A stretch of 64,000 bases of DNA from a virus. Its lineage: Duplodnaviria > Heunggongvirae > Uroviricota > Caudoviricetes. The stretch lies in IMG/VR virus record IMGVR_UViG_3300035680_000003; one strand, written 5' to 3'. The translations under genes and the position numbers were made by a program. Below the pieces are notes generated by a model. That model was not told the DNA's origin. It worked only from the letters and a program-made list of their open reading frames with translations, and searched no databases. Positions 39,772 through 58,498 of this stretch are shown in pieces. Numbering within the stretch: position 1 is the first letter of the stretch; each line of letters begins with the position of its first letter.

Positions 39772-40323
39772 ATGAGATGTTTCTATAAATTAAAAATTAA
39801 TAATCTAGAATCTATACAGGCACACGCATTATCTAAAATATCTGAAGAAGATCTTAATTTGATGCCAACTAGATTATTTTATCCAGAATATAATTTTTTA
39901 GATGATCAAGATCTCTTATGTGCGTTAAATCAATACGGGTTGACAAATTATATACATAATGTTGCTCTTTTTGTTCTCAATTCAGGAGGCATAAGCCCTA
40001 TTCATGTCGACGGGGATAATGACTATAATTGGAGTTTAAATATACCTTTAAAAAATTGCAGATATACTCGAACTAATTTTTATCAATCTAATGAGGTTCC
40101 TGTTAAGAAAAAAAGTCCAAACAGTGATATAGAATACAGTATCTTTGATCCAAACTCTTGCACACTACTAGATTCTCTTCGATTATCTGATCCATTTTTA
40201 ATGAATGTGTCAGTTCCTCACAGCATATCTAATCTTACTTTTACAACAAGAGTTTCTATATGTATAAGAATAAAATCTACATTTGACATAGAAGCCGCTC
40301 TGTCAGAATGGGATTTAAAATAA
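39772..40323 (+). CDS. 2OG-Fe(II) oxygenase-fold protein, paralog family member 1
   Basis: PIHVDGDND (HxD) ... VPHSISNLTFTTRVS (H-x10-RxS). Confidence 0.5.
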   Translation: MRCFYKLKINNLESIQAHALSKISEEDLNLMPTRLFYPEYNFLDDQDLLCALNQYGLTNYIHNVALFVLNSGGISPIHVDGDNDYNWSLNIPLKNCRYTRTNFYQSNEVPVKKKSPNSDIEYSIFDPNSCTLLDSLRLSDPFLMNVSVPHSISNLTFTTRVSICIRIKSTFDIEAALSEWDLK

Positions 40324-40330
40324 CGAATTT

Positions 40331-40870
40331 CTACATAATAAATTTTTCAAATCTACTTAATGCATCCTGCCATTTGAAATATTTCGAATTGTGTAATGAT
40401 ACTTTTATACTAACACACCATCGAGGTGACGTTATATTTGATACGTTATGAGGAACACCGCTTTGAAATAAACACGCCCCTTGTAAGTTTACGGATTCGA
40501 TTAACTGCATTTTATCAATTTCGTAGTCTCTTTTCCAAGCTACACCATTGTGTTTCGGTAGTCCTGGATACTTATTAATTGATCTGTACCAGTTAACTAG
40601 ACTATCATTTGCATTTATATAAAAATTTAAATTTGTTTGATCGTAAACGTTATAGTTGTCTATATGAATCGGGGAAGACGTGCTTTCCCCACTATAATAA
40701 ATTATTAGGCCGTTTAGTCGAAAATCATCAATTTTCTTTAACAGTTCTAGCATATCTGGACTTAATATTTCTGTTATATGAGCAGTACCTAATTTCCATT
40801 GTTTTTCGCATACAAAAGATTCGCTAAGAAACGGTACAGGAAATGACAGTTTTTTAAAATAATCGCTCAT
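40331..40870 (-). CDS. 2OG-Fe(II) oxygenase-fold protein, paralog 2
   Basis: SPIHIDNYN ... GVPHNVSNITSPRW. Confidence 0.5.
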   Translation of the reverse strand: MSDYFKKLSFPVPFLSESFVCEKQWKLGTAHITEILSPDMLELLKKIDDFRLNGLIIYYSGESTSSPIHIDNYNVYDQTNLNFYINANDSLVNWYRSINKYPGLPKHNGVAWKRDYEIDKMQLIESVNLQGACLFQSGVPHNVSNITSPRWCVSIKVSLHNSKYFKWQDALSRFEKFIM

Positions 40871-40933
40871 TCAAATATTTACCACCTAATTATTAATCGA
40901 GCTTTCTAGGAGTAATAAGAGCAGATAAATATT

Positions 40934-41500
40934 TTGATGAAATATTATAAAAAAATAGAAATTGAAAACTTAGAGGTAATACAGAAAAAAGTTTTACAAT
41001 TTATTAAATTTAAACACCCCACTATATATTTTAGAAAAGTTGAGTCATCTTGGAACCATCTCGATGTTCCGAGTTTGTTGGCGGCATGCCCAGAACTTTC
41101 TGAGTCTTTCGGCAAATTGAATTTATCCTGCATTTTTGCGTCAATTCATATAATGTATGATAATACACATTCTGCTATACATACTGATATTACGCCCTGG
41201 AAAGCTAGAATTAACATTCCTATTTTAAATTGCAACGGAACATTTACTAAATTTTATACAGGTGAAAAGGTAGTAGAAGAAATTAGGACCATGGCAAATA
41301 ATAAAACGTTTAAGGTAGATGCAATTATAAATCCACTTGAATGTATTGAAGTAGACGCATACGAATTAACACAGCCGTTAATTCTTAAAACTTATATACC
41401 ACATAGGGTTTTTATGAATGAAACTTCGAGACCTAGAATAGCATTGTCAATTGGCTGCGATCCTGATCCATTCTATCAATATTTTTCGTCAGACGAATAA
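40934..41500 (+). CDS. 2OG-Fe(II) oxygenase-fold protein, paralog 3
   Basis: SAIHTDITP ... IPHRVFMNETSRPR. Confidence 0.5.
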   Translation: MMKYYKKIEIENLEVIQKKVLQFIKFKHPTIYFRKVESSWNHLDVPSLLAACPELSESFGKLNLSCIFASIHIMYDNTHSAIHTDITPWKARINIPILNCNGTFTKFYTGEKVVEEIRTMANNKTFKVDAIINPLECIEVDAYELTQPLILKTYIPHRVFMNETSRPRIALSIGCDPDPFYQYFSSDE

Positions 41501-42067
41501 ATCTGTAGTATCCACTACATCTTCAATATTTCTAAATTTAATAGGATGTAGTCCCCATCGCACGGTAAACATTATCCTTATATCATCATTAAAATTTTTA
41601 ACACCATGCATGACATCACCTTTAACAAAACAAGGCTTTGTTATCTCAAGGTCTTCGATAATTTCTAATTTAGAATTGTCTATAGGAGTTAGACCATGCA
41701 GGTAACTGCTTTGTACGGCACCCATGACTAGATTTTCTTTTGGACAATGATACCATAACATTTTTGTATTATGACAATTTAATACAGGAATATTTAATCC
41801 AAACGGTACTGTAATGAATGAACTATCAACATGAGGAGCTAGCTCAGCATGCCCCGGTGTAAAATAAAACCTAAGTAATCGAATTTGACTTTTACTCCTC
41901 GACTTTAGCCACCTCATTAATTTTGGACAATGTTCAGTCATATGCTCTTCACTGAACGTACATGCATGTAGGCCTTTAGATGCATAATCATAATTAATAG
42001 ATTTAATTAATTCGTGTTGAATCTCTTCAAAGTTGGGGATATGGATGTATCTATAAAGTTCTTGCAT
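41489..42067 (-). CDS. 2OG-Fe(II) oxygenase-fold protein, paralog 4
   Basis: APHVDSS ... VMHGVKNFNDDIR. Confidence 0.45.
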   Translation of the reverse strand: MQELYRYIHIPNFEEIQHELIKSINYDYASKGLHACTFSEEHMTEHCPKLMRWLKSRSKSQIRLLRFYFTPGHAELAPHVDSSFITVPFGLNIPVLNCHNTKMLWYHCPKENLVMGAVQSSYLHGLTPIDNSKLEIIEDLEITKPCFVKGDVMHGVKNFNDDIRIMFTVRWGLHPIKFRNIEDVVDTTDLFV

Positions 42068-42733
42068 ACTTCCAAATATTTAGTAATAAATACTTTACAA
42101 ACTTTAAAAATTATGCTACCTTCTATAACATTAAACCCTGATGATTATTATTATGCACTTAATCAGCCCTGTACAATCTTACCTCAACTATTAGAATATG
42201 TTCAAAGTGTAGAAGACTGGGAGGGATTAGATTGGCATACATTTTATTTAGATGTACCAAATAGGACTGCTTGTAATTTCGAATCAGATCCTGTAATTAA
42301 ATTTTTTCTAGATCAGGGATGGAGGTTAAACTTCACATGTATGCCCCCTAAGGGGCATTATCGATGGCATATCGATAATCAAGGAAATAGACAAACCGCA
42401 ATAAATTTAGCACTAAATGGTTTTGAAACAACTAAAGTTATGTGGCGACCAAATAGACCGTACGTGCGAAAAATGAATACAGAAATTATGGATATTCCCT
42501 ACACACCTGGTACGTATTTTGTATTTAATACACAAGAGGAACATTGTGTAACTAATTTCAGTAATGAAAATAGATATCTATTAAGCATTACACCAGATAA
42601 AAGATTTGCTGTTCCTGAGTATTTTGACGGAATTTATAAAAATGTAAGTCCTAGTCGATACGCTGAAATTCTAAAAGGTTACAAGCTAGCATTTAAAGAG
42701 GTCGTTAGCGAAGTTAAAGCACAAGGTTGGTAG
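42014..42733 (+). CDS. 2OG-Fe(II) oxygenase-fold protein, paralog 5
   Basis: WHIDNQGN ... EEHCVTNFSNENRY. Confidence 0.45.
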   Translation: MLNLFKVGDMDVSIKFLHTSKYLVINTLQTLKIMLPSITLNPDDYYYALNQPCTILPQLLEYVQSVEDWEGLDWHTFYLDVPNRTACNFESDPVIKFFLDQGWRLNFTCMPPKGHYRWHIDNQGNRQTAINLALNGFETTKVMWRPNRPYVRKMNTEIMDIPYTPGTYFVFNTQEEHCVTNFSNENRYLLSITPDKRFAVPEYFDGIYKNVSPSRYAEILKGYKLAFKEVVSEVKAQGW

Positions 42734-42745
42734 TAGATTTTAAAT

Positions 42746-43354
42746 TCAGTCTTTCCATCTAATAGTATTCCAATCAAACATAAAATTTAAGTTAAGTTGT
42801 TCGTACGCTATCCATTGTTTAGTGTACTGAATATTAAGAGGAAAATCAATTACATTAAAATTATTATAAAATAGATGATGTAATTGTCTAGGTGATCGAG
42901 TTTCACCTAATCTTTTTCTTTTAAATGTTTCTATCAAATTTTTATTATAGTCATTAAATGTGATAGCAATAGCTTTACAATTATTGTCTATTGCCCATTG
43001 TTTGTGCATTGGTAAAAAAAGTTCTCTAGGTAATCCTAAATGTCGGTAATCTTTTGTAACCCATGTTCTACATCCGCCTATGGCAACTTCATTGGAGAAT
43101 TCACTTCTATAAACTCCCGAACAGGCTACAATAGTTTCATTTTTTATCGCTAAGTGAAACGCTCCACTGGTTTCAAAATATCGATGCCTGTTGTATATTT
43201 GATGTATTAGTGTGTTAGATTTAGTATGCCAATCTTCTACCCACATATTGCTGTGTGCTAGCTGAGTAATTTCTTCTGATGCCTCTTGACAAAATTTAAA
43301 AAATAAACTTTTATCCTCTAACTCGTCATACCGAATAAGTGTTAGATCAGACAT
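42746..43354 (-). CDS. putative GNAT-fold acyltransferase
   Basis: IVACSGV...AIGGCRTWVTKDYRHLGLPRELF looks like GNAT motif A and CoA-binding core; weak. Confidence 0.3.
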   Translation of the reverse strand: MSDLTLIRYDELEDKSLFFKFCQEASEEITQLAHSNMWVEDWHTKSNTLIHQIYNRHRYFETSGAFHLAIKNETIVACSGVYRSEFSNEVAIGGCRTWVTKDYRHLGLPRELFLPMHKQWAIDNNCKAIAITFNDYNKNLIETFKRKRLGETRSPRQLHHLFYNNFNVIDFPLNIQYTKQWIAYEQLNLNFMFDWNTIRWKD

Positions 43355-43895
43355 TGCTAACTAAATCTTCAAAATTTGGATTACCGTGAAATCTCATAGT
43401 AAATACCCACCGATCTTCGAGTTGATTTGATTGTGCTGAATGCGGACAATCTACTCTTAATAGATGAGGGCTGTCAATTTCTAATTTAAAATCTTCTGTA
43501 TATGGTTCTTGCCACATAATTTCATGATAAACGTTGTTGGATAACATTACAAGAGATGTGCTGTATTTTCCTTTATACCAAATTTGGTAACTGTTTTTAC
43601 AACCTTTCAACGGAATGTTTATTGCAGATTTTATAATACCTTCTTCATTACCGTCTATATGAATACCTTGAAAACTATTCTTTGGTCTAATATAACTTAG
43701 ACAATAGCGAACAGGAGGTATATTATACCTAGCTAGGTCTGCATCAATTATATGCTTTAATTGATTGTTGAGCTCGTGTCTTATTTGTATTTGTCTATCT
43801 ACAGGAATTGAAGTATCTATCTTTTTCTCTATATCTAAAATTGCAAATTCTTTTATAAGATGTTCGCATGTTAAATGAATTTTTTTACAGTACAC
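43347..43895 (-). CDS. 2OG-Fe(II) oxygenase-fold protein, paralog 6
   Basis: GIHIDGNEEG ... CPHSAQSNQLEDRW. Confidence 0.5.
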   Translation of the reverse strand: MYCKKIHLTCEHLIKEFAILDIEKKIDTSIPVDRQIQIRHELNNQLKHIIDADLARYNIPPVRYCLSYIRPKNSFQGIHIDGNEEGIIKSAINIPLKGCKNSYQIWYKGKYSTSLVMLSNNVYHEIMWQEPYTEDFKLEIDSPHLLRVDCPHSAQSNQLEDRWVFTMRFHGNPNFEDLVSNV

Positions 43896-43960
43896 GATGT
43901 TTATCGTAAAATTTTGGAATATCTTTTATTTAACTCTCTGCAATTTTGTAATATAAATAT

Positions 43961-44587
43961 ATGAAACATATTATGATAGTAGCCACACCACTTAACCTTC
44001 CTACTGTAGTCCCTGACGATTGGTCTGTATTTTGGAATATTTGGAACAATTATGGAAAACCTATAGTTAAAACGCAACAAAACCATAAGGGATCTTATTC
44101 AAAAATTGGAGATACAGATGTCTGGAAAGGTTTAGATATCTATAAAAATAATTTATTTCGATCTGCATGGACTGCACCTTACTATGATATTCGAGAAGAA
44201 CTTCCCTTAATGTATCAAATGATTACAAAAATTCCTCTATTCTCTCTTGTCACTGGTGTTAGGGTTGTAGAAAGCCTAGGAAATATTCCGCCACACACTG
44301 ATGATAATATAGATCGATGGAACGTTAGAGCAATGTTGCATTATACTGATTCGAACCCTCAATGGTTTTTTACTAAACCGAATGATACAAAAACTGCTGT
44401 GTTGTTAACATTGCCAGAGTCCACTAATTGGTTTGCATATAACGATAAGTACACATGGCATGGGTCGAAGTATAACCCGGATCACCCTAAATTATTAATT
44501 CAAATGTTTGGAGTAGGATTTAAGAACAGTCAGTTCCTACAAAAAAGTGCAGAAATGTACAAAGAATATACAATATCATATGACTAA
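43961..44587 (+). CDS. 2OG-Fe(II) oxygenase-fold protein, paralog 7 (divergent)
   Basis: PPHTDDNID ... TWHGSKYNPDHPK. Confidence 0.4.
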   Translation: MKHIMIVATPLNLPTVVPDDWSVFWNIWNNYGKPIVKTQQNHKGSYSKIGDTDVWKGLDIYKNNLFRSAWTAPYYDIREELPLMYQMITKIPLFSLVTGVRVVESLGNIPPHTDDNIDRWNVRAMLHYTDSNPQWFFTKPNDTKTAVLLTLPESTNWFAYNDKYTWHGSKYNPDHPKLLIQMFGVGFKNSQFLQKSAEMYKEYTISYD

Positions 44588-45368
44588 TTTATTTCAAGCT
44601 AGTTCAACTACTGTTAGGTATTCTCATATTGTAGCAAGGTTAGCAATTATTATAGGTGCATTCTTTGTAACATTTAATTTACCCTTATTACTTGTGTCTG
44701 CTATTGCATATCATGTTTTACTATCTATCGGTATAAGCATAATGATGCATAGATACTTCAGCCATAAAAGTTTTGAATTTAAAAATAATATTGTCAGAAA
44801 AGTTTTTATTATAATTTCATTGCTTTCGTTGCGAGGAAGTCCAATAGCTTGGGCATACATCCATCGAGCACATCACGAACACGTAGATACCGAAGATGAT
44901 CCGCATACTCCTGTTGGTAGAAAATTTAACTTTTTTGGATTACTTGACAACAAAAATAAAGCTGATGATATTCAGATATTTAAAATTAGATCTATGATGA
45001 CCAAGGAGCACCTATTTATTAATCAATACTATTGGTTGATCTTAGCATGTTTGTTAGTACCTTTTGCATTTATTAATTTTACATTATTTTATTATACATG
45101 GCTAGTTCCTGTAGTTCTTGTACAATTTTCTATTAATTTACAAAACTATTTAGGACATATGTCAGGTATAGGTGCGTATAGGACTTACACTAATCCATCT
45201 AGCGGCAATAGTCAAAATAGTTTGTTATTGTGGCCTTTATATTTAGGTGAAGCGTGGCATAACAACCACCATGCACATGCTCGACATTATCACTACGGAA
45301 CTGAAATAAGTGGAAAGTGGTGGGAGATCGATCCCGGTGCAATGCTCATTAAGTTACTGAAAAAATGA
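44547..45368 (+). CDS. membrane acyl-lipid/acyl-CoA delta9-desaturase-like di-iron enzyme (DesC/SCD family)
   Basis: three His boxes HRYFSH, HRAHHEH and GEAWHNNHHAHARHY (compare HRLWSH, HRxHH and HNNHH); four hydrophobic segments. Confidence 0.75.
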   Translation: MQKCTKNIQYHMTNLFQASSTTVRYSHIVARLAIIIGAFFVTFNLPLLLVSAIAYHVLLSIGISIMMHRYFSHKSFEFKNNIVRKVFIIISLLSLRGSPIAWAYIHRAHHEHVDTEDDPHTPVGRKFNFFGLLDNKNKADDIQIFKIRSMMTKEHLFINQYYWLILACLLVPFAFINFTLFYYTWLVPVVLVQFSINLQNYLGHMSGIGAYRTYTNPSSGNSQNSLLLWPLYLGEAWHNNHHAHARHYHYGTEISGKWWEIDPGAMLIKLLKK

Positions 45369-45925
45369 TACGATTTTTAACAATGGATGACTTGCCGGAT
45401 TGCATGAAAATTGCACCATTAAAAAATAGAACCGGTGGCACTGTTCCATTAACACTCGAAGGATTTTTAGGTGCCTTTGAAAAATATTTCCAGGATGATG
45501 AATTTTGCCGTGTGATTGGATACTTTGAAAATAATGAACTTGTTAGTTTTGTATGTATCAGAATGTTCGAAACTACGATGAGAGGAAAATTTTGGGTTAT
45601 TTCGGGATTATATACTAAGAATTTTAAAAGTTATTTTAGCTTTAACCATTCAGGAATAGGCGAATTAATTAAATTTGCATTCGATTATGCTGAATCACGA
45701 GGTTGGTATGAATATTATTATTGCACTGCCGAACGTGTAATAAATGTATATGAAAGACAATGGAAACGATCACACTCTCATAGATACGAACATATATTGT
45801 TAGACGTTGTTCCACCTAATACAAAACCATTTTATGAATTGCACTGGAGACTAATGGGGCAAGAAGTTAAACCTGTCCCAATGATTGTTAAAAAGCGAGC
45901 GTTAAAACAAGAATTTAGAAAATAA
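45365..45925 (+). CDS. putative GNAT-fold acyltransferase (second)
   Basis: VSFVCIR...GIGELIKFAFDYAESRGWYEYY resembles the GNAT core; weak. Confidence 0.3.
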   Translation: MIRFLTMDDLPDCMKIAPLKNRTGGTVPLTLEGFLGAFEKYFQDDEFCRVIGYFENNELVSFVCIRMFETTMRGKFWVISGLYTKNFKSYFSFNHSGIGELIKFAFDYAESRGWYEYYYCTAERVINVYERQWKRSHSHRYEHILLDVVPPNTKPFYELHWRLMGQEVKPVPMIVKKRALKQEFRK

Positions 45926-45971: not shown

Positions 45972-46748
45972 ATGAACACAGCATTTTTATCTAGCAGCAC
46001 TAGGGGTGCTCAACTATTCTTGATATTAAATTTAATAGGTACTTTCGGTGCTGTCTGGTTGTACGGATTAAATTTTAATTCTTTTATGATGGTACTAGTG
46101 GGATACTTTTTATATGGTTGTTTAGGTATCGTCGTAACTTATCACAGAAATCTTTCTCACAATAGTTATAGAACACATCCGATCATTGTAAAGATATTTT
46201 CATTATTAGGATGCTTTGCAGGGACCGGCAGTCCACTTGCATGGGTGGCCATTCATATCAATCATCACTTAAAGAGTGACAAGCCTACTGATCCGCATAG
46301 TCCGTTATACAAAGGGGTAAAGATCTTTATGATGGATTATATAAATGAAGTTGATAAAGATACAAAATGGAGAATGAGGGCATTAGTCACTGACAGATTC
46401 CAGCAATTCCTACATAGATATTATTTTGCAATCATTGCAACCTATAGCCTTGTACTATTTTTAATAGGAGGATTTTGGTTGATGGTATTTTTTCATTGGG
46501 CGCCTGCTGCAATGACCGCCCTTATGAGTAATGTTGTTAATTATGTGGGACACAAACCAAGTTGGTGGGGTGGATATAGAACACACAATCTAAATGATCA
46601 AAGTACAAATAATTGGCTATGGGCTATTCCTAGTTGGGGGGAAGCGTGGCACAACAATCATCATAGATATCCTAGGAATTTTAGTTTTGGAAACAAGTGG
46701 TGGGAGATTGATATTTCGGCACTTGTAATTAGATTGATTAAAATTTAA
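45972..46748 (+). CDS. membrane delta9-desaturase-like di-iron enzyme (second copy)
   Basis: HRNLSH, HINHHLKSD and GEAWHNNHHRYPRNF His boxes; paralog of 44547..45368. Confidence 0.75.
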   Translation: MNTAFLSSSTRGAQLFLILNLIGTFGAVWLYGLNFNSFMMVLVGYFLYGCLGIVVTYHRNLSHNSYRTHPIIVKIFSLLGCFAGTGSPLAWVAIHINHHLKSDKPTDPHSPLYKGVKIFMMDYINEVDKDTKWRMRALVTDRFQQFLHRYYFAIIATYSLVLFLIGGFWLMVFFHWAPAAMTALMSNVVNYVGHKPSWWGGYRTHNLNDQSTNNWLWAIPSWGEAWHNNHHRYPRNFSFGNKWWEIDISALVIRLIKI

Positions 46749-49699: not shown

Positions 49700-50266
49700 A
49701 TGTACTTCTCATACTTATCTCTTCCAAGATTACCTAAAGAATTTTTTGCTCAATGTTTGGAAAATGTAAAATACATTGGTGTAGATCCTAGACTAGAAAA
49801 TGTTAATAGTTATCGAGGGCCAATGAATCGAGCTACGTATCTGCCCGAAGAATGTAATACATGGATTATTAGAAATATTGTATTTCCGTTATATGGAAGT
49901 ATTCCTTCAACTCTAAAATTAAATTTATTAAATGTAACTACATACCAAAAGTTAAAACCTCAAGAAGAGACATGGGGTACACACCCTAAACATATCGACA
50001 AAGGCAGAAACTGGGCATTAAATTATTATTTTACCACTGGTGGAAGTAATACTACCGTTAGGTGGTACGAAGATAATGTTGTGGCAGCAGAAACACCACC
50101 TATAGAAATTAATAGATGGTGTTTATTAAAAGTTAATCAACTACACGATGTTAGAGGAATTGAAGAAGGTCAAATTCGATATTTTTTAACATTGAATATT
50201 TCTTCTGAAAATATAGATAATTTTAAATCAGTAATTGATCAAAATACAGTGATTGAAAAAAAATGA
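49700..50266 (+). CDS. 2OG-Fe(II) oxygenase-fold protein, paralog 8
   Basis: HPKHIDKGRN ... NQLHDVRGIEEGQIRY. Confidence 0.4.
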   Translation: MYFSYLSLPRLPKEFFAQCLENVKYIGVDPRLENVNSYRGPMNRATYLPEECNTWIIRNIVFPLYGSIPSTLKLNLLNVTTYQKLKPQEETWGTHPKHIDKGRNWALNYYFTTGGSNTTVRWYEDNVVAAETPPIEINRWCLLKVNQLHDVRGIEEGQIRYFLTLNISSENIDNFKSVIDQNTVIEKK

Positions 50267-51795
50267 CAGTAGATTGTTTGTTACTATATGGTAATCATTT
50301 ATTACCTATGTCTAAATATGCGGGAACATTTCGAATTGCTAGCGAGTTAAGAAATGCAGGCTATACTGTTCAGTGTATTGATATGACAGCGTATGAAGAC
50401 AACCGTGAAGAACTCATCGATACAATAAAGATGTTTATAGGTAATAATACATTATGGGTGGGAATTAGTACAACCTTTTTGCGTCATGTATTTGGATATC
50501 CCTATTTTCGTACGATAGATTCATTTAATGTAAAATCTACAACTATCCCAAATATTGATAAAGAAATTTTAAATTTTATTAAAACCGTTAAGGATATTAA
50601 TCCAAACGTAAAATTTATTGCCGGTGGCTCGAAAAGATTTATGATCGAGAAATACGGTTTTAAAGTTTTTACAAAAAATAATGATACTGAAATTATTGAG
50701 TTTACAGATTATTGTGCAAAAAAATCTAAAAAAATACCAGTAAGTTTTTTAGAATCACTGATTGAAGGTTCAGAATTTCAACAGTTTACAACAAGCCAAA
50801 ATATCTTTACTAAGAACGATATTGTCGAATCGTCAGATACCCTTCCTATTGAAGTTAGTAGAGGTTGTATTTTTAAATGTAAATTTTGTTCATTTCCACT
50901 TAATGGTAAAAAGAAAGGCGAATGGGTTAAACGTTCTAATGTATTGTATGAAGAGTTTATAAAGAATTATGAGTTGCATGGAGTAACAGAATACAGTTTT
51001 TCCGATGACACATACAATGATAGTGAAGAAAAAGTTAAAAGATTGTATGACGAAGTGTATAGTAGGCTACCATTTAAATTAAACTTTACTACATATTTGA
51101 GACTTGATTTAATGATAAAATTTCCCGACACAGTGAAATACTTACAAGAGTCAGGTTTAAAATCAGCAGTCTTTGGTATAGAAACAATAAATCATAATTC
51201 AGGTAAGGCTATTGGCAAAGGTTTAAATCCCATTGAACAATTTCAGTTTATTGAAGAAATTAAAAAAAATGAATTTAAAGAGATACTAACTCGTTCTGGA
51301 TTTATATTAGGGTTGCCAAAAGACAGACACGACGAGATTAATATCCTAGAAGAATTCTTATTTTCAGAAAAGAATAAATTAGATGACTTTAGTGTAGAAC
51401 CTTTGATTATATTTCCTCCAAAATTTGATCAAACAAAATTTAAAGATTTTTCTGAATTTGATATAGAATATGAAAAATATGGATATAAGATTTATGAAAA
51501 CATCGAAACATCTTCTATTACTGAAATTAGATGGACCAACGATTATATCGGAATGACTTTTGATCAAGTAGCTAAAGCTGCAAAAAAAATAAATGTAAGA
51601 AAATATTTCGATGGTAGATTCAAGTGCGGTGGATTTGGTTACAATTGGCATAGGTCTCTCGGAATTCCAGCAGATGATCTAGTGGCACTGAGTCGGAATG
51701 AAATATATACAAAGTATAACGTCAAACAACTGCTAAAAACAAAAAAAGATAATTATCGATCATTAATACTTAATGTAATGAAAAATAATGAATAA
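50263..51795 (+). CDS. B12-binding-domain radical SAM enzyme (class B-like)
   Basis: CxxxCxxC at about aa 205 (VSRGCIFKCKFCSFP) after a Rossmann-like N-terminal domain; 510 aa; paralog at 62481..63983. Confidence 0.7.
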   Translation: MTVDCLLLYGNHLLPMSKYAGTFRIASELRNAGYTVQCIDMTAYEDNREELIDTIKMFIGNNTLWVGISTTFLRHVFGYPYFRTIDSFNVKSTTIPNIDKEILNFIKTVKDINPNVKFIAGGSKRFMIEKYGFKVFTKNNDTEIIEFTDYCAKKSKKIPVSFLESLIEGSEFQQFTTSQNIFTKNDIVESSDTLPIEVSRGCIFKCKFCSFPLNGKKKGEWVKRSNVLYEEFIKNYELHGVTEYSFSDDTYNDSEEKVKRLYDEVYSRLPFKLNFTTYLRLDLMIKFPDTVKYLQESGLKSAVFGIETINHNSGKAIGKGLNPIEQFQFIEEIKKNEFKEILTRSGFILGLPKDRHDEINILEEFLFSEKNKLDDFSVEPLIIFPPKFDQTKFKDFSEFDIEYEKYGYKIYENIETSSITEIRWTNDYIGMTFDQVAKAAKKINVRKYFDGRFKCGGFGYNWHRSLGIPADDLVALSRNEIYTKYNVKQLLKTKKDNYRSLILNVMKNNE

Positions 51796-51844: not shown

Positions 51845-52765
51845 ATGGAAAGACATAATCAATGGATGAGCTACAGTTTTGATGCTATAGAATATGGCAA
51901 AAAAACTGATTCAAATTCTATTTTTAAAATTCATTTTAATAAAAAAATAGATAAAAATCTCCCTTCTTATAGAGATGCATTATTTAATAATGCCCGTATT
52001 ATGCGAGACTCGTATAATGAACCATTTGATGTAATGTTGTCAGGCGGAGTTGATAGCGAAATGGTTGTGCGAACATTTCATGCTGTGGGAATTAAACACA
52101 ATACATTTATTTTTAGATTAGAAAATGATTATAACATTCGAGATGTTAATTATGCCATAGCTGTTTGTAAAGAACTAAACATTAATTATAAAATAATAGA
52201 TTTTAATTTACAAAAATTCTTCGAAAATGATGCACTTGATTTATTTCAAAAGACACTAATTCCAAGATCAGGAAGAATAGTGAGACTTGCGTGGTTTAAC
52301 TATCTTGATAATATTCCAGTTTTTTGTGACGGTGAACCCTACTGGCGCAGGGATGCAAATAAAGATTTTAGTAAAAAATCTACGTGGAGATTAATTTTAA
52401 ACGAAGACGGATACTCGTGTTCTACCTATGCTAAATCAATTGGTAGAGTAGCGATTGGGGATTGGTATGAATATACCCCCGAATTGTTATTGTCATACAA
52501 CGAATTGCCGTTAGTTAAAAAATTACTCAACGACGAAATCTCAGGGAAGATTAGTTCCTGGAGTAGCAGGTCTGCTATTCACAGAGATATCTGGCCTACT
52601 GTACAGGATAAAATAAAATTAGCAGGATACGAAGGTGCAGACGGCAATCCTGTATTGAGTCGTCCGGATTTTATGAATCACTTTCAGGTAACGTATATGA
52701 ATCAAGTGTCCAATACTCATTACGAATATACTGAAGAAGAACTAAGAAATTTAATCCTTAATTAG
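51845..52765 (+). CDS. PP-loop ATP pyrophosphatase superfamily protein (306 aa)
   Basis: FDVMLSGGVDSEMVV motif; paralog of 56385..57314 (N-termini MERHNQWMSYSFDAI and MRRFRDWMTYSFDGI). Confidence 0.55.
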   Translation: MERHNQWMSYSFDAIEYGKKTDSNSIFKIHFNKKIDKNLPSYRDALFNNARIMRDSYNEPFDVMLSGGVDSEMVVRTFHAVGIKHNTFIFRLENDYNIRDVNYAIAVCKELNINYKIIDFNLQKFFENDALDLFQKTLIPRSGRIVRLAWFNYLDNIPVFCDGEPYWRRDANKDFSKKSTWRLILNEDGYSCSTYAKSIGRVAIGDWYEYTPELLLSYNELPLVKKLLNDEISGKISSWSSRSAIHRDIWPTVQDKIKLAGYEGADGNPVLSRPDFMNHFQVTYMNQVSNTHYEYTEEELRNLILN

Positions 52766-53590
52766 ATTTTCTCGGACCCAACGTCCCCAATGTATACAAT
52801 GATACTCGTATTTTGATAGTGATTCGGTAACAGGAAAGAATTTTGTTTTTATCTTTTCGATCGCAGCAACATCTTCCCTAAACACAGTTTCTAATGTTTC
52901 AAATTCGATACGATCATTATGTGGAACATCAGGGGCATAATAGAATTGTGTAATCCATTCGAATTTCCATTCTATATTTTTATCTGCAGGAACAATAGTG
53001 TTTACTGACAGGCATCCTTTCTTATGCTCGACAAAGGTGTAGGGGTATATATAGAGTGACCACCAACCTGGAGAATGTTCTTGGAATATCCATCCATCTC
53101 CTTGATCCATAACAACATTATCTAAATCAATTTGTTCAGAGAGTCTCGGATGAATTCCATCCTTTTGTACATGTAAATAATCTGCTTCAGCATCCATGAG
53201 CCATAACCAGCTTCCCTCGCTTTTACCTTGAAGAGAATGACTATATTCTAGCGTTGTTTCTTTTTCCAGATCATCGACCCATTGATGGTCTGGTTCGATA
53301 AAATCTTTAAATACTAACCCTGATCGACCAACAGTTGCAGTCCCACAATTTAATTTTTTAGAATTATTAATTGGTGTGCCATTTGCATCCCATTGAAATC
53401 CGTGGAACTTACATGTAATGCTGTTGATATGTGTTCCTGGATCAGCTAGTGGATACATTCTGTGGGGACAAAATCTGTGAAATAAATTTACTATATTACC
53501 TTGTTTATTTAGAATATATTCAGAAACTGCAAAGTTCTTGTCCTGCAATGCACTGAGATGAGCAAAAATTTTAGGAGATTTAATAAACAT
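52751..53590 (-). CDS. Rieske [2Fe-2S] domain protein (Rieske oxygenase-like)
   Basis: CPH-x16-CKFH (FCPHRMYPLADPGTHINSITCKFHGFQWD) is the Rieske CxH...CxxH signature. Confidence 0.55.
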   Translation of the reverse strand: MFIKSPKIFAHLSALQDKNFAVSEYILNKQGNIVNLFHRFCPHRMYPLADPGTHINSITCKFHGFQWDANGTPINNSKKLNCGTATVGRSGLVFKDFIEPDHQWVDDLEKETTLEYSHSLQGKSEGSWLWLMDAEADYLHVQKDGIHPRLSEQIDLDNVVMDQGDGWIFQEHSPGWWSLYIYPYTFVEHKKGCLSVNTIVPADKNIEWKFEWITQFYYAPDVPHNDRIEFETLETVFREDVAAIEKIKTKFFPVTESLSKYEYHCIHWGRWVRENLIKD

Positions 53591-53622: not shown

Positions 53623-54210
53623 ATGTATGCTATTTACTTAAACGACATAGAAAGATTTATTGCGATTGAAAAAGATCTTTGGATTGCACATGCATCGGCA
53701 AAATTGCTATCTTCAAAATTATCTATCTCTATATGTGATATCGGAAATGCATTGTCTGTAACTAACTATAACTGTTTTCAATGGACATTGTCAAGTGTAG
53801 ACTTGCCCGCCTCTACACAATATCCAAAATTAGTTGTACCAAAAGATTCTAAATTAGAATTTGTCGGTGATCCTATTAATACAGATATGGAAATGTTAAA
53901 ATTGCATCAGCAATTTTGTTTGTTAGTATTAAAGGTTGTTTTTGCGGCAAAAATGACCGACATTGAATTAAATTCAGGAGATCGAAAATATTTTCAATCT
54001 TTACTTAAAAACGACACTTTACTATCTGCGTCGGACGAGTCCGGAATTCCTGGAGGGTTTTTACATACAATAGAAAGAATTCTTTATTTGAGTTCAAATG
54101 TAACGCACGTTATGTCTCATATTGAATTAATGTTTAATAATTCAGAGAGTATATTTCCTAGAAATCTTGCACAATATAAATTACTATTTTACAAATACTT
54201 AAATGCATAA
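53623..54210 (+). CDS. hypothetical protein
   Basis: 195-aa ORF inside the accessory cluster. Confidence 0.35.
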   Translation: MYAIYLNDIERFIAIEKDLWIAHASAKLLSSKLSISICDIGNALSVTNYNCFQWTLSSVDLPASTQYPKLVVPKDSKLEFVGDPINTDMEMLKLHQQFCLLVLKVVFAAKMTDIELNSGDRKYFQSLLKNDTLLSASDESGIPGGFLHTIERILYLSSNVTHVMSHIELMFNNSESIFPRNLAQYKLLFYKYLNA

Positions 54211-55495
54211 ATTTTATTACAAAACCTTTGATCCAAACCTTAGAAGTTTTTCTAAATTGCTCAGTAACAATGTAACTGATTTACCACCAGGCGGCAGATT
54301 CTATTTTAATCTTGCAAGATCAATGCGTATGAGCGGTGAGAATTACCTATTTAGAGATGGGGAGTGGAGTGATCCTTTTAAAACTGTGGTCCACCCTACC
54401 TTTGCTATGCCATCATATACGTCAAATTTTAATTTAAATTTTTCAGAAGTATCGGACTTAAGGTCTCTCGATATTAAAAAAATCATCAACGATACTGATC
54501 GGTCGATAGTAATTCAATGGTCTGGAGGAATTGACAGTACTGTAGCACTTGTATCTTTATTAAAAAATCTGTCACATTCTGAATTGTCAAATGTAATTAT
54601 TGCAATGAGTAGCGACAGCCTTTTAGAAAATCCTAATTTTTATAATAAGTTTATTAAAGATAAATTCAAAATTATTGATTCTGAAAATATGTTGTTTAAC
54701 GATTATAAAGAAAAATACAATGCATATTGCATCATGGGAGACACAGGCGATTGTCTATTTGGTTCAGAATTAGGAAATAAATTATACCCTAAGATGAAAT
54801 TTATACAAGATAACACTGGTCATCTTTATAACAAAATTAGTTCACCTGATGTACATTATTCAATCTATAGGGATATCATTGTACAGTATTTTAATGATAA
54901 TCTTCAAACTTCAATACTTTCTTTAAAACAACAAGGTGTAGTTAACAGTAGTATTAGCGAATTTATTTCAGGGGACGAAACGTTTGGAGAACTATTCTAC
55001 GAAAAAATTGTTAAGAATATAGAAACATGCAGTGTTCCTATATACAGTCTACATGACTTTTTCTGGTGGACAATCTTTAGTGGAAGATATATATTCTGTG
55101 CCCTAAGAGGACCTAGTGTGTTTAGCATCGGCGCCAATAAAGAGGCATTAATTAATGATTGTCTTATTCAATGGTTTAATACCGACGAATATCAACTATG
55201 GTCTATGAATAATAATAACAATGGGGAAAAGTTATCTGGGCCTATACAAGGCCTTGGAAAAACTGCTGCAAAAAAATACATTTACGATTTTGATAAAAAC
55301 GAATGGTATTTTACGCATAAGATGAAAGTCGTGTCGTCACCAAATATTCTTAGAAGAAACTGGCGTAAACATTTTGCAGATTTTGATCCTATGCTAGGTG
55401 TTGATACAAATTACAATTTGATTAAAATAGGACCAGCGACAGTTAACAATTATGTCATTAATAGACTAATGAACTACAAAATAGATTGGTGTTAA
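54203..55495 (+). CDS. PP-loop ATP pyrophosphatase superfamily protein (430 aa)
   Basis: SIVIQWSGGIDSTVALVSL motif at about aa 105. Confidence 0.5.
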   Translation: MHKFYYKTFDPNLRSFSKLLSNNVTDLPPGGRFYFNLARSMRMSGENYLFRDGEWSDPFKTVVHPTFAMPSYTSNFNLNFSEVSDLRSLDIKKIINDTDRSIVIQWSGGIDSTVALVSLLKNLSHSELSNVIIAMSSDSLLENPNFYNKFIKDKFKIIDSENMLFNDYKEKYNAYCIMGDTGDCLFGSELGNKLYPKMKFIQDNTGHLYNKISSPDVHYSIYRDIIVQYFNDNLQTSILSLKQQGVVNSSISEFISGDETFGELFYEKIVKNIETCSVPIYSLHDFFWWTIFSGRYIFCALRGPSVFSIGANKEALINDCLIQWFNTDEYQLWSMNNNNNGEKLSGPIQGLGKTAAKKYIYDFDKNEWYFTHKMKVVSSPNILRRNWRKHFADFDPMLGVDTNYNLIKIGPATVNNYVINRLMNYKIDWC

Positions 55496-56388
55496 TTTTG
55501 AGTTATTTCTTTCTTATATCGTTCTCTGAAAGACTTTAATAAAGAAATACTTGAATGGTAATGCAATTTTGAATCTTGATTATAAAAGACAGGACTTATA
55601 AAGTCTCCTAATCCAAACAACTTATTCTTGCCTAAATTCATTGTAGCTTGATGAAATATAGCGGATATATTTTCTTTAGTTTCTTTGGGCATTTCTTTTG
55701 ATGCCATAGTGAAATGAAAGATATATGGAGCTGTAATTTTTTGCTCAGTTAACGTTTTAATATTTGGGAGATCTGGGTGTCGTTCTGTGCAACTCATTCC
55801 GATTATTTGTAAGTTAGGATTCTTTGCCTTGTACTGATTAAATGCAGATACACGCTCAACAATAAAGTTAATACTATTATTGTCAGAAGCCATGTGGAGC
55901 AGTGCATCTGCATTGCTTCGATACACAATATAGCGAACAGGTATATTATATTTTTTTCCTAGTTCTAGACCTAGTAGATGAGTAGCACCACCTATAGCAG
56001 GGCCGCCTATGGTAAGTTCTTTAGGAAGCTCATTTTCTTTAAAGTTAGTAATAATTGCCCAGCAGGCACTTCCGTGACTAAACACTGGTTCTAATTTATT
56101 TAGGTCAATTAGTCCTCTACTTTCAGCTTCGACTACACTATTGGTAATAGTCACAACACGATTTTTTGGTTGTTCTAATGCCTCTCGAACACCTATACTT
56201 TCAAAGCCACCAGCTTTAAATTCTGTAACAAATTTATATTTGTTTTGTATTTTATTTGCTTCATCTAACACAGCGAATATTTGAGGAGTCATACTTTGCG
56301 TAGGTCCTTGAGCATTTATTACTACAATAGTTTCTTGTGCCTGTGCTAGATTTAAAAATAACAATAAACTTACAATTATAAACTTCAT
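55492..56388 (-). CDS. secreted TctC/Bug-family solute-binding protein (second copy)
   Basis: signal IIVSLLLFLNLAQAQ; paralog of 48773..49681 (shared GGATHLLGLELGKKY region). Confidence 0.45.
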   Translation of the reverse strand: MKFIIVSLLLFLNLAQAQETIVVINAQGPTQSMTPQIFAVLDEANKIQNKYKFVTEFKAGGFESIGVREALEQPKNRVVTITNSVVEAESRGLIDLNKLEPVFSHGSACWAIITNFKENELPKELTIGGPAIGGATHLLGLELGKKYNIPVRYIVYRSNADALLHMASDNNSINFIVERVSAFNQYKAKNPNLQIIGMSCTERHPDLPNIKTLTEQKITAPYIFHFTMASKEMPKETKENISAIFHQATMNLGKNKLFGLGDFISPVFYNQDSKLHYHSSISLLKSFRERYKKEITQN

Positions 56389-57314
56389 GGGATTCCTTTA
56401 AATTTTTTGTTTACTTCTTCAAGTGAATACGTAAAACTAAGATTGGTTAAGTCTGACATTTGATTTTCCATATAAAAATCTTTAAAAAATTTAGGAAGAC
56501 TTTCTAAAGGTGTTCCAGTCGGACCTTCGTAACCAATTAATTTTGATTTATTTTTTATGTCTGGCCATATCTGTTGATGTAAAGATATTCTACTAGAGAG
56601 GGTGCTTTTTTTGCCTACATTTTTATCATCTAGCAAATCTTTTATAAGATCATTTTGATGGTAACTCATTGTAATGTAGGGAGTGTATAGGTACCATTCT
56701 CCTATAATCTCTCTATTATGATGGTGTGATGTTAACGACATAAAAAGCTGGCGCTCAGTAAGATACAGAGACCAATTAGATTTTTTTGTATAATCACTGA
56801 GCAAGTCTCGTTTCCAATAAGGAGATCCTTCACCAAAAACAGGTATGTTATCTAAATAATCTAACCATTTAATTTTTGATAAGGACGGACTATGCGGCAC
56901 TAACGTTTTTTCAAATATGTCTTTAGCATCGTGTTCATAAAATTTAGATAAGTTAAAATCAATAATTTTATAAGGTATATTTAATGTTTCACATATCTGT
57001 ATTGAAGAATTAATATCTCGAATATTTAAATTATCTTCGTACCTAAAAATAAATGTATTATGTGTTATACCTAAATCTTTAAAAGTGCGAACTATCACTT
57101 CGCTATCTATGCCACCGGATAATAAAACATCAAACGGCTCTGAAAAAGAATCTCGCATAATACTTGCATTTTGTATCAATGCATCATGATACGACATTGG
57201 CATAATGTCGTTAGAGATATTAAAATGAATGTCCAGGAAAGATCTTCTAGAAGATTTAGGAGAATTTAAAATTCCGTCAAAAGAATACGTCATCCAATCT
57301 CTAAATCTTCTCAT
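56385..57314 (-). CDS. PP-loop ATP pyrophosphatase superfamily protein (309 aa)
   Basis: FDVLLSGGIDSEVIV motif; close paralog of 51845..52765. Confidence 0.55.
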   Translation of the reverse strand: MRRFRDWMTYSFDGILNSPKSSRRSFLDIHFNISNDIMPMSYHDALIQNASIMRDSFSEPFDVLLSGGIDSEVIVRTFKDLGITHNTFIFRYEDNLNIRDINSSIQICETLNIPYKIIDFNLSKFYEHDAKDIFEKTLVPHSPSLSKIKWLDYLDNIPVFGEGSPYWKRDLLSDYTKKSNWSLYLTERQLFMSLTSHHHNREIIGEWYLYTPYITMSYHQNDLIKDLLDDKNVGKKSTLSSRISLHQQIWPDIKNKSKLIGYEGPTGTPLESLPKFFKDFYMENQMSDLTNLSFTYSLEEVNKKFKGIP

Positions 57315-57320
57315 AGAAAA

Positions 57321-57653
57321 TTAAAGTTCTTCTTTTTCTACCGGGTCAGAATAAATGCCTACAGAAGTGTTATATGCATCGAGAGCGGCAGTTCTTTCAA
57401 TCGTTACACTACGACTTGCATAGTCCTCGTAGAGTTCTTTACTTTCCCATATGAATTCTACTTCTAATGTCAGCTCGTCCGGTTCGGATAACGTTCTGAT
57501 TTTTCTCCCATGAAACTCTCCGAACATCATTTCTAACATTCGGGTATTTAAATCTTCATCTAAGTTTAGATTAAAATACCATTCTATCGTTTCATTCGGT
57601 CTATGAAATCTGCTTAAAACTCTATATGCCATGCTAATTCTCCAGTGATACAA
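57321..57653 (-). CDS. hypothetical protein
   Basis: 110-aa ORF. Confidence 0.35.
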   Translation of the reverse strand: MYHWRISMAYRVLSRFHRPNETIEWYFNLNLDEDLNTRMLEMMFGEFHGRKIRTLSEPDELTLEVEFIWESKELYEDYASRSVTIERTAALDAYNTSVGIYSDPVEKEEL

Positions 57654-57715
57654 TTATTTATTGTTTTAGATAAGAGATCTTATATTTTGATGTGCTAGCA
57701 ATATACTTTTAGAAT

Positions 57716-58498
57716 TTACCATATTATAGCATAGTCTTTAAATTTGGTAGCCGACATAACTATCATATCTCTAGTTCTCTGTCGAACTATAGTTTGATAA
57801 TTTTTTTTAACTGTTATAAATGCTGCAATTCTAATACCTGAAACATTTATTGATGGTGCATGTACTGCTCTAAAATTGTTTAGATAATATGCCATGTGCG
57901 GATCGGTCATCTTACAATTAAAAATTTCTTCTTGCAATCTTCTATCCCCGCCGGTTAACGGTACAGTAATACCTTCCTGTCTGTAGTAGGGCAGTTTTGT
58001 TTTTCGTAATAATAATGGATTATCATTGTAGTGTTCACACTCGAGGTAGAATCTAAAACCGGTTGGATCAACATCATTGTGCCAAAATGAAACACCTTTG
58101 ACGGATTTTCTTACTGGCAAGAATATTGCACCACTAAGTTCATGTCGGCGTATTTTAAAAGCTTCATAGCAATATACTGCTAGTTCGGGAAATTCTTTAT
58201 CAAAATTATTTTGCCAGACGCCGTCCCAAGCACCCCAAACTAAATCCCAAGGGTATTCTTCTCCAATAATATCTTCAGCATTATCTGATTTAGACTTACA
58301 GGATTGCGGGTAGGCACTTTGCGCCCAAGATAAAAATTTTGTAATGTCTACATCCGGTCTCTTTGGGATGTCTAAGGGAGTATAACAAATATCAATAGGT
58401 TCCATACTTATTTTTTTTAATCTTGTTTGCTTATAACGGATATGCACAATATTTAAAAGAGCATTCATTGCTAAGTTATTTATTTTTAAAAATAACAA
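57716..58498 (-). CDS. 2OG-Fe(II) oxygenase-fold protein, paralog 9
   Basis: SFWHNDVD (HxD) ... RAVHAPSINVSGIR (H-x10-R). Confidence 0.4.
   Translation of the reverse strand: MLFLKINNLAMNALLNIVHIRYKQTRLKKISMEPIDICYTPLDIPKRPDVDITKFLSWAQSAYPQSCKSKSDNAEDIIGEEYPWDLVWGAWDGVWQNNFDKEFPELAVYCYEAFKIRRHELSGAIFLPVRKSVKGVSFWHNDVDPTGFRFYLECEHYNDNPLLLRKTKLPYYRQEGITVPLTGGDRRLQEEIFNCKMTDPHMAYYLNNFRAVHAPSINVSGIRIAAFITVKKNYQTIVRQRTRDMIVMSATKFKDYAIIW

Follow-up and report, generated by a model that had tools for sequence, protein, structure and literature searches.

The stretch of DNA analysed here, which we call the window, comprises 64,000 nucleotides of a virus of the Caudoviricetes (IMG/VR virus record IMGVR_UViG_3300035680_000003), and its positions 39772-58498 hold an island of ~19 kb with low guanine-cytosine (GC) content, in which 24 open reading frames (ORFs) switch strand 11 times. 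Our analysis indicates that this island is most likely a mobile, conserved biosynthetic or tailoring cassette of uncultured aquatic phages. Between 543 and 39454, each ORF of at least 150 aa that we accepted as a gene lies on the minus strand, and the original prediction, a reading of the letters alone, had noted precisely this minus-strand run ending at ~39.5 kb and a strand-switching gene cluster behind it. The borders drawn in that reading are those of a compositional island, because the GC content steps sharply at both of them, from 0.41-0.51 to 0.27-0.36 at ~39.4 kb and back up at ~58.6 kb. Neither repeats nor att-like sequences were found at the borders; the repeats seen were one His-box paralog match and chance-level AT-rich matches. 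The genes of the island are listed below, where HxD denotes a family of candidate 2-oxoglutarate (2OG) oxygenases, GNAT a family of acyltransferases, and A1 and A7 are alignments of the HxD family, A7 holding 77 sequences.

39772-40323, plus strand: HxD paralog 1, 183 aa, AspH/LpxO-type 2OG-oxygenase-like; H78, D80 and H150 invariant in A1; member of a BLAST cluster of five
40331-40870, minus strand: HxD paralog 2, 179 aa; by alignment, same BLAST cluster of five
40934-41500, plus strand: HxD paralog 3, 188 aa; by alignment, same BLAST cluster of five
41489-42067, minus strand: HxD paralog 4, 192 aa; by alignment, same BLAST cluster of five; H79, D81 and H154 invariant and R164 nearly so in A7
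42014-42733, plus strand: HxD paralog 5, 239 aa, subfamily c41; hhalign to A7 with a probability of 94.7%
42746-43354, minus strand: G3, probable GNAT acyltransferase, 202 aa, core family; Pfam Acetyltransf_1, 22.2 bits against a cutoff of 20.7
43347-43895, minus strand: HxD paralog 6, 182 aa; by alignment, same BLAST cluster of five
43961-44587, plus strand: HxD-motif protein 7, 208 aa, subfamily c32; H..D..H motif with K in place of R, weak as an oxygenase member
44547-45368, plus strand: putative SCD/DesC-type membrane desaturase 1, 273 aa, core family; Pfam FA_desaturase 1e-12, invariant His boxes
45365-45925, plus strand: G2, predicted GNAT-fold protein, 186 aa, core family; family profile to the PDB N-acetyltransferase 4lua, 4.6e-4
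45972-46748, plus strand: putative SCD/DesC-type membrane desaturase 2, 258 aa, core family; Pfam FA_desaturase 3.6e-16
46748-47620, plus strand: putative NMO/FabK-like flavin mononucleotide (FMN) oxidoreductase, 290 aa; Pfam NMO 3.7e-14 (53 bits against a cutoff of 28)
47610-48776, plus strand: PP388, large PP-loop protein (SGGADS); by motif, with no Pfam, NCBIfam or PHROG match and PDB matches at motif level only
48773-49681, minus strand: TctC1, predicted secreted solute-binding protein of the tripartite tricarboxylate transporter (TTT) family, 302 aa; Pfam TctC 2.4e-23, hydrophobic segment at residues 1-27
49700-50266, plus strand: HxD paralog 8, 188 aa; by motif and hhalign to A7 (probability 79%, E 1.5e-5)
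50263-51795, plus strand: radical S-adenosylmethionine (SAM) enzyme, probably of the B12-binding class, 510 aa; Pfam Radical_SAM 2e-11, CIFKCKFC (CxxxCxxC)
51845-52765, plus strand: PP306a, predicted adenylating amide synthetase of AsnB-like PP-loop type, lacking the glutaminase domain, 306 aa, core family
52751-53590, minus strand: small putative Rieske non-haem-iron oxygenase, 279 aa; Pfam Rieske 9e-8, paired with PP306a
53623-54210, plus strand: 195-aa protein with no family match, conserved in close relatives only (L002 ortholog 70% identical)
54203-55495, plus strand: PP430, large PP-loop protein (SGGIDS); by motif, with weak NCBIfam matches to PRK06850 and DndC and a motif-level PDB match to TilS
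55492-56388, minus strand: TctC2, probably secreted, divergent TTT-type binding protein, 298 aa; Pfam TctC 6.3e-5, 23.1 bits against a cutoff of 27
56385-57314, minus strand: PP306b, paralog of PP306a, 309 aa, 49% identical
57321-57653, minus strand: small conserved protein of family c33 (103-110 aa), which recurs beside PP388 at other loci
57716-58498, minus strand: 260-aa protein with an HxD..H..R motif only, without statistical support for oxygenase-family membership

Evidence that these genes belong together comes from other phage contigs. Two divergent contigs, L002 and L005, were reached via the HxD family. L002 has a flanking DSPc gene that is 95% identical to that of the window and island genes that are 48-76% identical, in the order GNAT, desaturase, c32, desaturase, NMO, PP388, TctC, HxD, PP-loop, Rieske, 200-aa protein, PP428, TctC, PP309 and c33, without the radical SAM gene and without the upstream paralogs, and L005 carries a looser version with extra desaturases, an ATP-grasp protein and a DUF2817 protein. 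The 95% identity of the flank against 48-76% in the island, together with the lower GC content of the island, suggests that the island diverges, or is exchanged as a unit, independently of the phage backbone. Scanning IMG/VR for the PP306 family then gave at least 227 loci, 79 of which (26-91% identity) were kept and all their ORFs within 10 kb clustered. The desaturase occurs in 66 of these 79 loci, G2 in 65, G3 in 52, an Asp_Arg_Hydrox-like cupin (c4) in 44 and the HxD family in 36, followed by PP388 (31), a TauD enzyme (27), the Rieske protein (24), TctC (23) and a B12-type radical SAM enzyme (22). About 30 of the most distant loci (26-32% identity to the window) hold a fixed co-directional series of G3, a 72-aa carrier protein in some, PP306, G2 and desaturase, an operon of ~3 kb with the 4-nt stop/start overlaps typical of translational coupling. 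Adjacency is strict as well: G2 adjoins PP306 in 54 of 65 loci, the Rieske gene adjoins PP306 in 21 of 24, and TctC adjoins PP388 in 15 of 23. The reciprocal scan with a desaturase profile reached at least 578 viral contigs, and the best 78 desaturase loci contain the Asp_Arg_Hydrox-like cupin (39), G3 (31), PP306 (28), HxD (28) and radical SAM (26).

The cassette thus has a core of G3, PP306, G2 and desaturase, with or without an acyl carrier protein (ACP), and a variable shell of the Rieske gene, NMO with PP388 and TctC, PP430 with TctC, radical SAM and the cupin paralogs, and the window is an elaborate member of this family. Scattering of the genes in homologous phages would have spoken against the original prediction, and we found the reverse, since relatives at all these distances retain the clustering and the fixed operon. 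Because of this co-occurrence, the fixed operon, the strict adjacency and a recurrence in a Bdellovibrionales chromosome, the genes form a functionally linked conserved module and not a chance neighbourhood.

The related loci also show arrangements of their own. Tandem arrays of SCD-type desaturases stand beside a PP306-Rieske pair in L012 (3300013006_001903; nine copies) and L029 (3300042484_002676; eight copies), an expansion that looks analogous to that of the HxD genes in the window. In L006/L007 (12040-12638) a PP306-Rieske pair occurs without the rest of the module, with rubrerythrin and rubredoxin genes ~0.3 kb downstream that may supply electrons to the Rieske oxygenase. A fibre-like protein with GN(V/I)TGN repeats (L010, 665-2251; family c50) lies beside desaturases in ~12 loci, which hints that the cassette sits in or near a tail-fibre or host-recognition region in some lineages. 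A gene conserved upstream in the distant loci with the operon (L063, 4523-6103) is without a match among GenBank phages.

A scan of cellular genomes, with one genome per species, gave 22 loci, 11 of them in metagenome-assembled genomes (MAGs) of Bdellovibrionota. In L103, a 413-kb Bdellovibrionales contig, the module adjoins a Lon protease gene and is therefore taken to be chromosomal; it comprises a cupin, a B12-type radical SAM enzyme, PP306, a desaturase, a membrane protein, G2, an ACP, a desaturase, a short-chain dehydrogenase/reductase (SDR), a split transketolase, a second radical SAM enzyme, a cupin and G3. L099 joins a cupin and PP306 to two ATP-grasp ligases, two pyridoxal phosphate-dependent (PLP) decarboxylases of the Orn/DAP/Arg type, an ACP and an AMP-binding enzyme. 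The two loci are thus settings of small-molecule biosynthesis. The Bdellovibrionota matches are 20-33% identical to the phage proteins, which is too distant for a host to be inferred from them. L091 (JANWKP010000208.1), filed as a Nitrososphaerales archaeon MAG, is a 6-kb sequence with the order HxD-HxD-DES-DES-c32-G3-PP306-TctC (DES, desaturase) and is almost certainly a mis-binned phage fragment rather than archaeal DNA. Distant homologs of PP306 (21-26% identical) also form tandem pairs, with neither desaturase nor GNAT genes as partners, in the isolate Bradyrhizobium denitrificans LMG 8443 (L104) and in Alphaproteobacteria MAGs (L100/L101); the isolate could be a culturable source of this enzyme family.

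The central enzyme of the module is PP306. Its predicted fold is that of the AsnB synthetase domain, and Foldseek agrees; S66, G67, G68, D70 and S71 are invariant in 47 sequences. The protein has no N-terminal Ntn glutaminase domain, as the PP-loop begins at residue 66 and the part before it is a small beta unit, and because this domain is absent PP306 is AsnB-like yet no asparagine synthetase. Judged from the fold, its mechanism would resemble that of the AsnB synthetase half, in which a carboxylate is adenylated and then attacked by a nitrogen nucleophile. The closest known enzymes are the AsnB-family synthetase domains of beta-lactam synthetase, the carbapenam synthetase CarA and the hydroxyamidotransferase TsnB9. 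PP306 differs from them in its identity of 9-14%, its length of ~306 aa against ~500 aa and the absence of the N-terminal glutaminase, and its Pfam and NCBIfam matches stay under the cutoffs. It is a family of its own. All 347 homologs of the family are 'hypothetical' or unnamed in their sources. The four PP-loop proteins that had been predicted all contain the SGGxDS loop; weak Pfam matches were obtained for the 306/309-aa paralogs only, and sequence matches of the PP-loop proteins to QueC, NadE, MnmA, TilS and DndC are confined to that loop.

Both desaturases are, by sequence, genuine membrane di-iron enzymes of the SCD/DesC type. Besides the Pfam matches, desaturase 2 aligns over its full length to acyl-CoA desaturase 1 (mouse SCD1, 4ymk; 2.1e-11), the His-box residues H58, H63, H95, H98, H99, H194, H227, H230 and H231 are invariant in 31 sequences and align to 4ymk, in agreement with the three His boxes (HxxxxH, HxxHH, HxxHH) and extra N...H ligands of this enzyme type, and both proteins have two transmembrane hairpins on the Kyte-Doolittle scale (residues ~12-58 and ~150-190), which bears out the two DesC-like His-box desaturases recognised earlier. 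The enzyme encoded behind them had been called enoyl-reductase/NMO-like, and this too holds at the level of the Pfam match and of a full-length match to PDB FabK (2.2e-5). It fails the FabK equivalog level (TIGR03151 of NCBIfam, 39 bits against a cutoff of 453), and we therefore regard it as a probable member of the wider NMO/FabK FMN family. A 119-aa ORF antisense to this gene (47176-47535, minus strand) is of low complexity, rich in Ser, Leu and Pro, and is probably no gene.

The two GNAT-like acyltransferases of the original prediction were likewise recovered, G3 by its Pfam match and G2, which has no Pfam match, by its family profile and the fold of its AlphaFold2 model. This model has a pLDDT of 77.5, and the best 50 Foldseek matches listed are all GNATs (E ~1e-6, template-modelling score 0.55-0.69). 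The two proteins are weakly related to each other. We also considered G2 as a LuxI- or FeeM-type GNAT that uses acyl-ACP, and this was unsupported, as the top structural matches are generic acetyltransferases. The 72-aa protein in the operon of the relatives is a phosphopantetheine carrier protein by its Pfam PP-binding match (24 bits, cutoff 20.8), and its LDSLD motif is conserved. It occurs at ~24 related loci, among them those of the close relatives L113 and L118, and also in L103.

Nine small HxD proteins with an oxygenase fold had been predicted, and seven of them are statistically supported as AspH/LpxO-type relatives, whereas the two at 43961-44587 and 57716-58498 carry the motif only. 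Across all nine the H, D and H are invariant, and the R that follows the distal His by about ten residues is present in 8 of 9. An exhaustive HMMER search placed 2,482 cluster representatives in the HxD family, and in A7 the H, D and H are invariant and N, P and R nearly invariant. None of the paralogs in the window is above a Pfam cutoff; paralog 5 matches Pfam 2OG-FeII_Oxy_3 (P4H-type, PF13640) at 4.8e-4, under the cutoff. The family is joined to the aspartyl/asparaginyl hydroxylases (PF05118, the family that also contains LpxO) by matches of 6 of its 77 members (best 9e-7), by the comparison of its profile with the PF05118-like neighbour family at the related loci (Asp_Arg_Hydrox-like; probability 91-95%) and by profile-profile links of up to 98%. 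By sequence, neither the A1 nor the A7 profile found anything significant in the PDB, and hhalign of A1 to the single Asp_Arg_Hydrox protein of L010 was not significant, so that the link is seen with family profiles only. A classification as AspH/LpxO-type 2OG oxygenases by transitive homology to PF05118 is therefore reasonable. The protein at 43961-44587 gave an hhalign probability of 4-6% to A7 and of 71-72% to the cupin families c17 and c23, and its orthologs in L002 and L005 lie between or ahead of desaturases.

The Rieske protein was also correctly named: it has the CxH...CxxH centre (CPHR...CKFHG), its PDB matches are the Rieske oxygenases DdmC and SxtT, and a plausible mononuclear-iron motif, DxxHx(4-6)H, is present in the sequences of the window and of L010. 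For the radical SAM enzyme, described before as class-B-like, the Radical_SAM domain and the CxxxCxxC motif stand, but the B12 class relies on matches far below cutoff. The best NCBIfam families, TIGR04072 (lipid/ladderane), PhpK, HpnJ and BchE, are all B12-binding, with alignments that start at residue ~20 and score 57 bits against cutoffs of 360-600, and there is no Pfam B12-binding match; class B (cobalamin-binding) is thus likely. Of the two signal-bearing TctC/Bug proteins, the first is solid, with matches to PDB TTT binding proteins at 7e-14, and the second is under the Pfam cutoff but clusters with TctC1 and has a signal-like segment at residues 4-24. They are the only non-desaturase proteins with a hydrophobic segment. 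The island contains no TctA or TctB gene, and both would therefore need membrane partners of the host.

The phage itself is uncultured and has a genome of ~240 kb. The window lies in a 239,901-bp Joint Genome Institute (JGI) metagenome contig (3300042875, Ga0453091_000005), and residue-for-residue copies of window proteins were found on more than 50 other contigs. The phage is a large myophage that encodes rIIA, rIIB, collagen-like tail fibres (3458-8055) and 13 tRNA genes, and as its rIIA and another conserved protein (17580-18800) share 28-30% identity with those of PA5oct-like jumbo phages, it is a distant relative of these. By megablast, neither the island nor its flank matched any of 50,697 GenBank phage records, and a comparison of 20 island proteins with PHROGs produced hardly any match. 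Next to the island, at 37114-39454 on the minus strand, lie genes for an HD_4 protein, a 181-aa protein, an AAA_33 kinase and a DSPc phosphatase, which also border the module at 3, 10, 15 and 10 other loci, respectively, and may form a separate conserved unit, for example a kinase-phosphatase pair. Further upstream (11092-32816, minus strand) is a block with many envelope-type genes, which includes a 2OG-FeII_Oxy_5 protein, a nucleotide-sugar epimerase, a cytidylyltransferase, a DD-carboxypeptidase of family S11, a UDP-glucose dehydrogenase, two glycosyltransferases and an SPFH/Band 7 protein. The 13-tRNA array (59094-62444, minus strand) follows immediately downstream of the island and holds two tRNA-Met(CAT) genes, one of which could be a lysidine-requiring tRNA-Ile2.

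What the cassette makes can be proposed from the chemistry of its families, from which we infer every step below. An acyl or aminoacyl group would be held on a carrier protein, in this phage either the ACP of the host or one encoded elsewhere in the genome, and the GNATs would pass it to an amine acceptor. PP306 would adenylate a carboxylate and close an amide bond, and because it has no glutaminase domain, its nucleophile would be free ammonia, an amine or an intramolecular group. At the inner membrane, the membrane desaturases would unsaturate (or hydroxylate) the acyl chain, and the cupins (seven to nine 2OG oxygenases), the Rieske oxygenase, the radical SAM enzyme and the flavoenzyme would tailor the product. 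The TTT receptors, each beside a large PP-loop protein, may plausibly capture an external carboxylate that the neighbouring enzyme would activate. The expected product would be an N-acyl amide or amino-lipid-like molecule made inside the infected cell.

We give a probability of roughly 40% to this reading of the cassette as a pathway, linked to a carrier protein, for making or tailoring an N-acyl amide or (amino-)lipid-like molecule. Its acylated-metabolite logic is supported because there is a carrier protein in the operon of the relatives, the SCD-type desaturase is the tightest partner, and PP306 is AsnB-like. Thus, the virus-encoded lipid or acylated-metabolite pathway of the original prediction stands in so far as an acyl-linked module is conserved, but the window itself does not supply the carrier: hmmsearch of its 64 kb in six frames found no carrier-protein gene (best E 0.11). 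Several other points weigh on the same side. The core has no ketosynthase, acyl-ACP synthetase, OlsB- or Spt-type enzyme; the fold of G2 resembles generic acetyltransferases (SpeG, RimI, Naa50, PaiA) and not the GNATs that use acyl-ACP; and PP388 and PP430 are recognised by the SGGxDS motif only. About one-fifth of the best 78 desaturase loci are without any partner family, and the PP306-Rieske pair of L008 lies amid nucleotide-sugar and nucleotide genes with no desaturase, abutting a cytidylyltransferase and a UDP-glucose dehydrogenase and with GTP cyclohydrolase I and SAM synthetase nearby. Part of the conservation among related phages reflects common descent, and the radical SAM/SPASM and AspH-type partners at related loci fit peptide tailoring equally well.

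Such peptide or protein tailoring, which would give a product like a ribosomally synthesized and post-translationally modified peptide (RiPP), possibly lipidated, or modify phage or host proteins such as collagen-like tail fibres, is in our view unlikely overall. AspH/P4H-type hydroxylases, SPASM/B12 radical SAM enzymes, GNATs in N-acylation and AsnB-like (lasso-cyclase-like) amide-forming enzymes would all have polypeptides as substrates; the HxD family links to PF05118 and one paralog weakly to the P4H-type PF13640, and the model of G2 resembles protein N-acetyltransferases. Related loci frequently carry the radical SAM families c18 (with a weak, sub-threshold SPASM match) and c20 and TauD enzymes, L005 and L099 have ATP-grasp ligases, and there are collagen-like fibres in the window and the fibre-like c50 beside desaturases in 12 loci. 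However, the tightest partner of PP306, at 66 of 79 loci, is a lipid desaturase of the SCD type, for which no peptide substrate is known, the core operon contains a carrier protein and no candidate ORF for a precursor peptide, and the periplasmic TTT binding proteins would be left unexplained. It is a good deal less than likely that the island is instead heterogeneous, a collection of independent auxiliary metabolic genes without a shared substrate in a recombination-prone region of large aquatic myophages. Hypervariable islands of pelagimyophages and cyanomyophages have been described (PMC7029224), and several features would agree with a heterogeneous island: gene content and order vary between loci, L002 is without the radical SAM gene, the tandem paralog expansions differ, the GC content and divergence of the island are unlike those of its flanks, and some desaturase loci have no partner family at all. 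Independent genes would hardly keep a fixed order with 4-nt overlaps in ~30 loci at 26-32% identity to the window, nor adjacencies of 21/24, 54/65 and 15/23, nor would the same set be expected in a bacterial chromosome.

Remodelling of envelope glycans is very unlikely to be the role of the cassette, although it would agree with the surroundings: AsnB-like enzymes would amidate uronic-acid or other carboxylates, GNATs would N-acylate the amino sugars of lipopolysaccharide, capsule or peptidoglycan precursors, and superinfection would be blocked. AsnB-like amidotransferases are known in O-antigen loci, the pair in L008 abuts sugar-nucleotide genes (cytidylyltransferase and UDP-glucose dehydrogenase), and upstream of the island are the UDP-glucose dehydrogenase, glycosyltransferases, epimerase, cytidylyltransferase and DD-carboxypeptidase. 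These sugar genes, however, lie outside the low-GC island and on the opposite strand, and most related loci join PP306 to desaturase, ACP and GNAT genes and not to sugar genes. We consider it highly improbable that the PP-loop ATPases, radical SAM enzyme, GNATs and 2OG oxygenases hypermodify tRNA or DNA. The weak matches of the four PP-loop proteins of QueC, MnmA, TilS and DndC type would suggest this, as would the 13-tRNA array that the island abuts and the GTP cyclohydrolase I and SAM synthetase near the pair in L008, but those matches cover the SGGxDS region only, such a role would leave no place for the membrane desaturases, ACP and periplasmic binding proteins, and a non-exhaustive scan of the window proteins revealed no DpdA/TGT-type or other DNA-modification Pfam family.

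For the N-acyl amide or amino-lipid reading, a comparison can be made with known amino-lipid pathways, namely ornithine lipid synthesis by OlsB and OlsA with OlsC/LpxO-type hydroxylases, and N-acyl amino acid synthases with dedicated ACPs. The cassette resembles them in its logic of a GNAT-type N-acyltransferase, an acyl carrier protein and AspH/LpxO-family hydroxylases that would act on an acylated amine, whereas the PP-loop amide synthetases, SCD-type desaturases, Rieske oxygenase and TTT binding proteins of the cassette are absent from those pathways. The island proteins gave no match to Pfam Acetyltransf_5 or PlsC at E <=0.01. Cyanophage PstS is a phage-encoded periplasmic solute-binding protein, and like PstS and the bacterial TTT-Bug receptors, TctC1 and TctC2 would be secreted binding proteins that must dock on a membrane transporter of the host; unlike PstS, an ABC-type phosphate binder, they are of the TTT type, and each copy is paired with a cytoplasmic PP-loop protein.

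Among published findings, single desaturase genes of phages come closest to the cassette. Researchers have shown that the vFADs of cyanophages are Delta9 lipid desaturases (Roitman et al. 2018, PMC5776448), the genes listed for freshwater pelagimyophages include stearoyl-CoA desaturase, fabF and AspH-like ones (PMC7029224), and an acyl-CoA desaturase was reported for phages from Baikal (PMC7678222). Like the desaturases of the island, these viral desaturases fall within the FA_desaturase/SCD superfamily with its His boxes, and they are regarded as lipid-remodelling auxiliary genes. They have been treated as single genes, whereas here the desaturase closes a GNAT-ACP-PP-loop-GNAT-desaturase operon and comes in 2-9 tandem paralogs. 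In a tblastn search of GenBank phages with a limit of 1e-5, the sole match of the desaturase was to an Acinetobacter phage (25% identity), and cyanophage records gave none. Radical SAM cassettes and glycosyltransferases are found in the hypervariable islands of pelagimyophages and cyanomyophages, with AspH-like and desaturase genes elsewhere in the genomes, and an aspartyl/asparaginyl hydroxylase is among the core proteins of pelagimyophages (PMC7029224). They resemble the present island as large variable islands of aquatic T4-like phages with radical SAM cassettes and envelope-related enzymes; in contrast, the phage of the window is only distantly related to theirs, and the core operon and the PP-loop families are not described there.

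The module had been called one not recognised as described, and our searches agree: tblastn of PP306 and PP388 against the 50,697 GenBank phage records gave no match, and in an incomplete search of the literature, which included PMC5776448, PMC7029224, PMC7678222 and a jumbo-phage survey (PMC7824862), we found no description of the GNAT-ACP-PP-loop-GNAT-desaturase cassette, of PP306, PP388 and PP430, or of paired TTT receptors in phages. In IMG/VR, the PP-loop family of the cassette occurs on at least 227 contigs and its desaturase on at least 578; the cassette includes families that are unannotated in the sources searched, and it has no cultured representative. What is new here is that virus-encoded lipid- or metabolite-remodelling genes extend to a multi-enzyme, carrier-linked operon with unannotated enzyme families; lipid genes of viruses in bacteria have so far been treated singly, and the desaturase often ends such an operon. 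A bolder version of the acyl-amide reading, which we hold to be speculative and rather unlikely, is a self-contained phage pathway for an N-acyl amide lipid or signal with its own carrier, two GNATs, a new family of AsnB-like amide synthetases and diversifying sets of desaturases and oxygenases, fed by the periplasmic binding proteins of the phage, perhaps even a 'predator' device shared with Bdellovibrionota that rewrites the envelope of the prey or host. If an acyl-amide lipid or signal is indeed the product, it would be a new class of phage-made metabolite, and many of the 'hypothetical' genes in the hypervariable islands of freshwater phages would thereby acquire a function.

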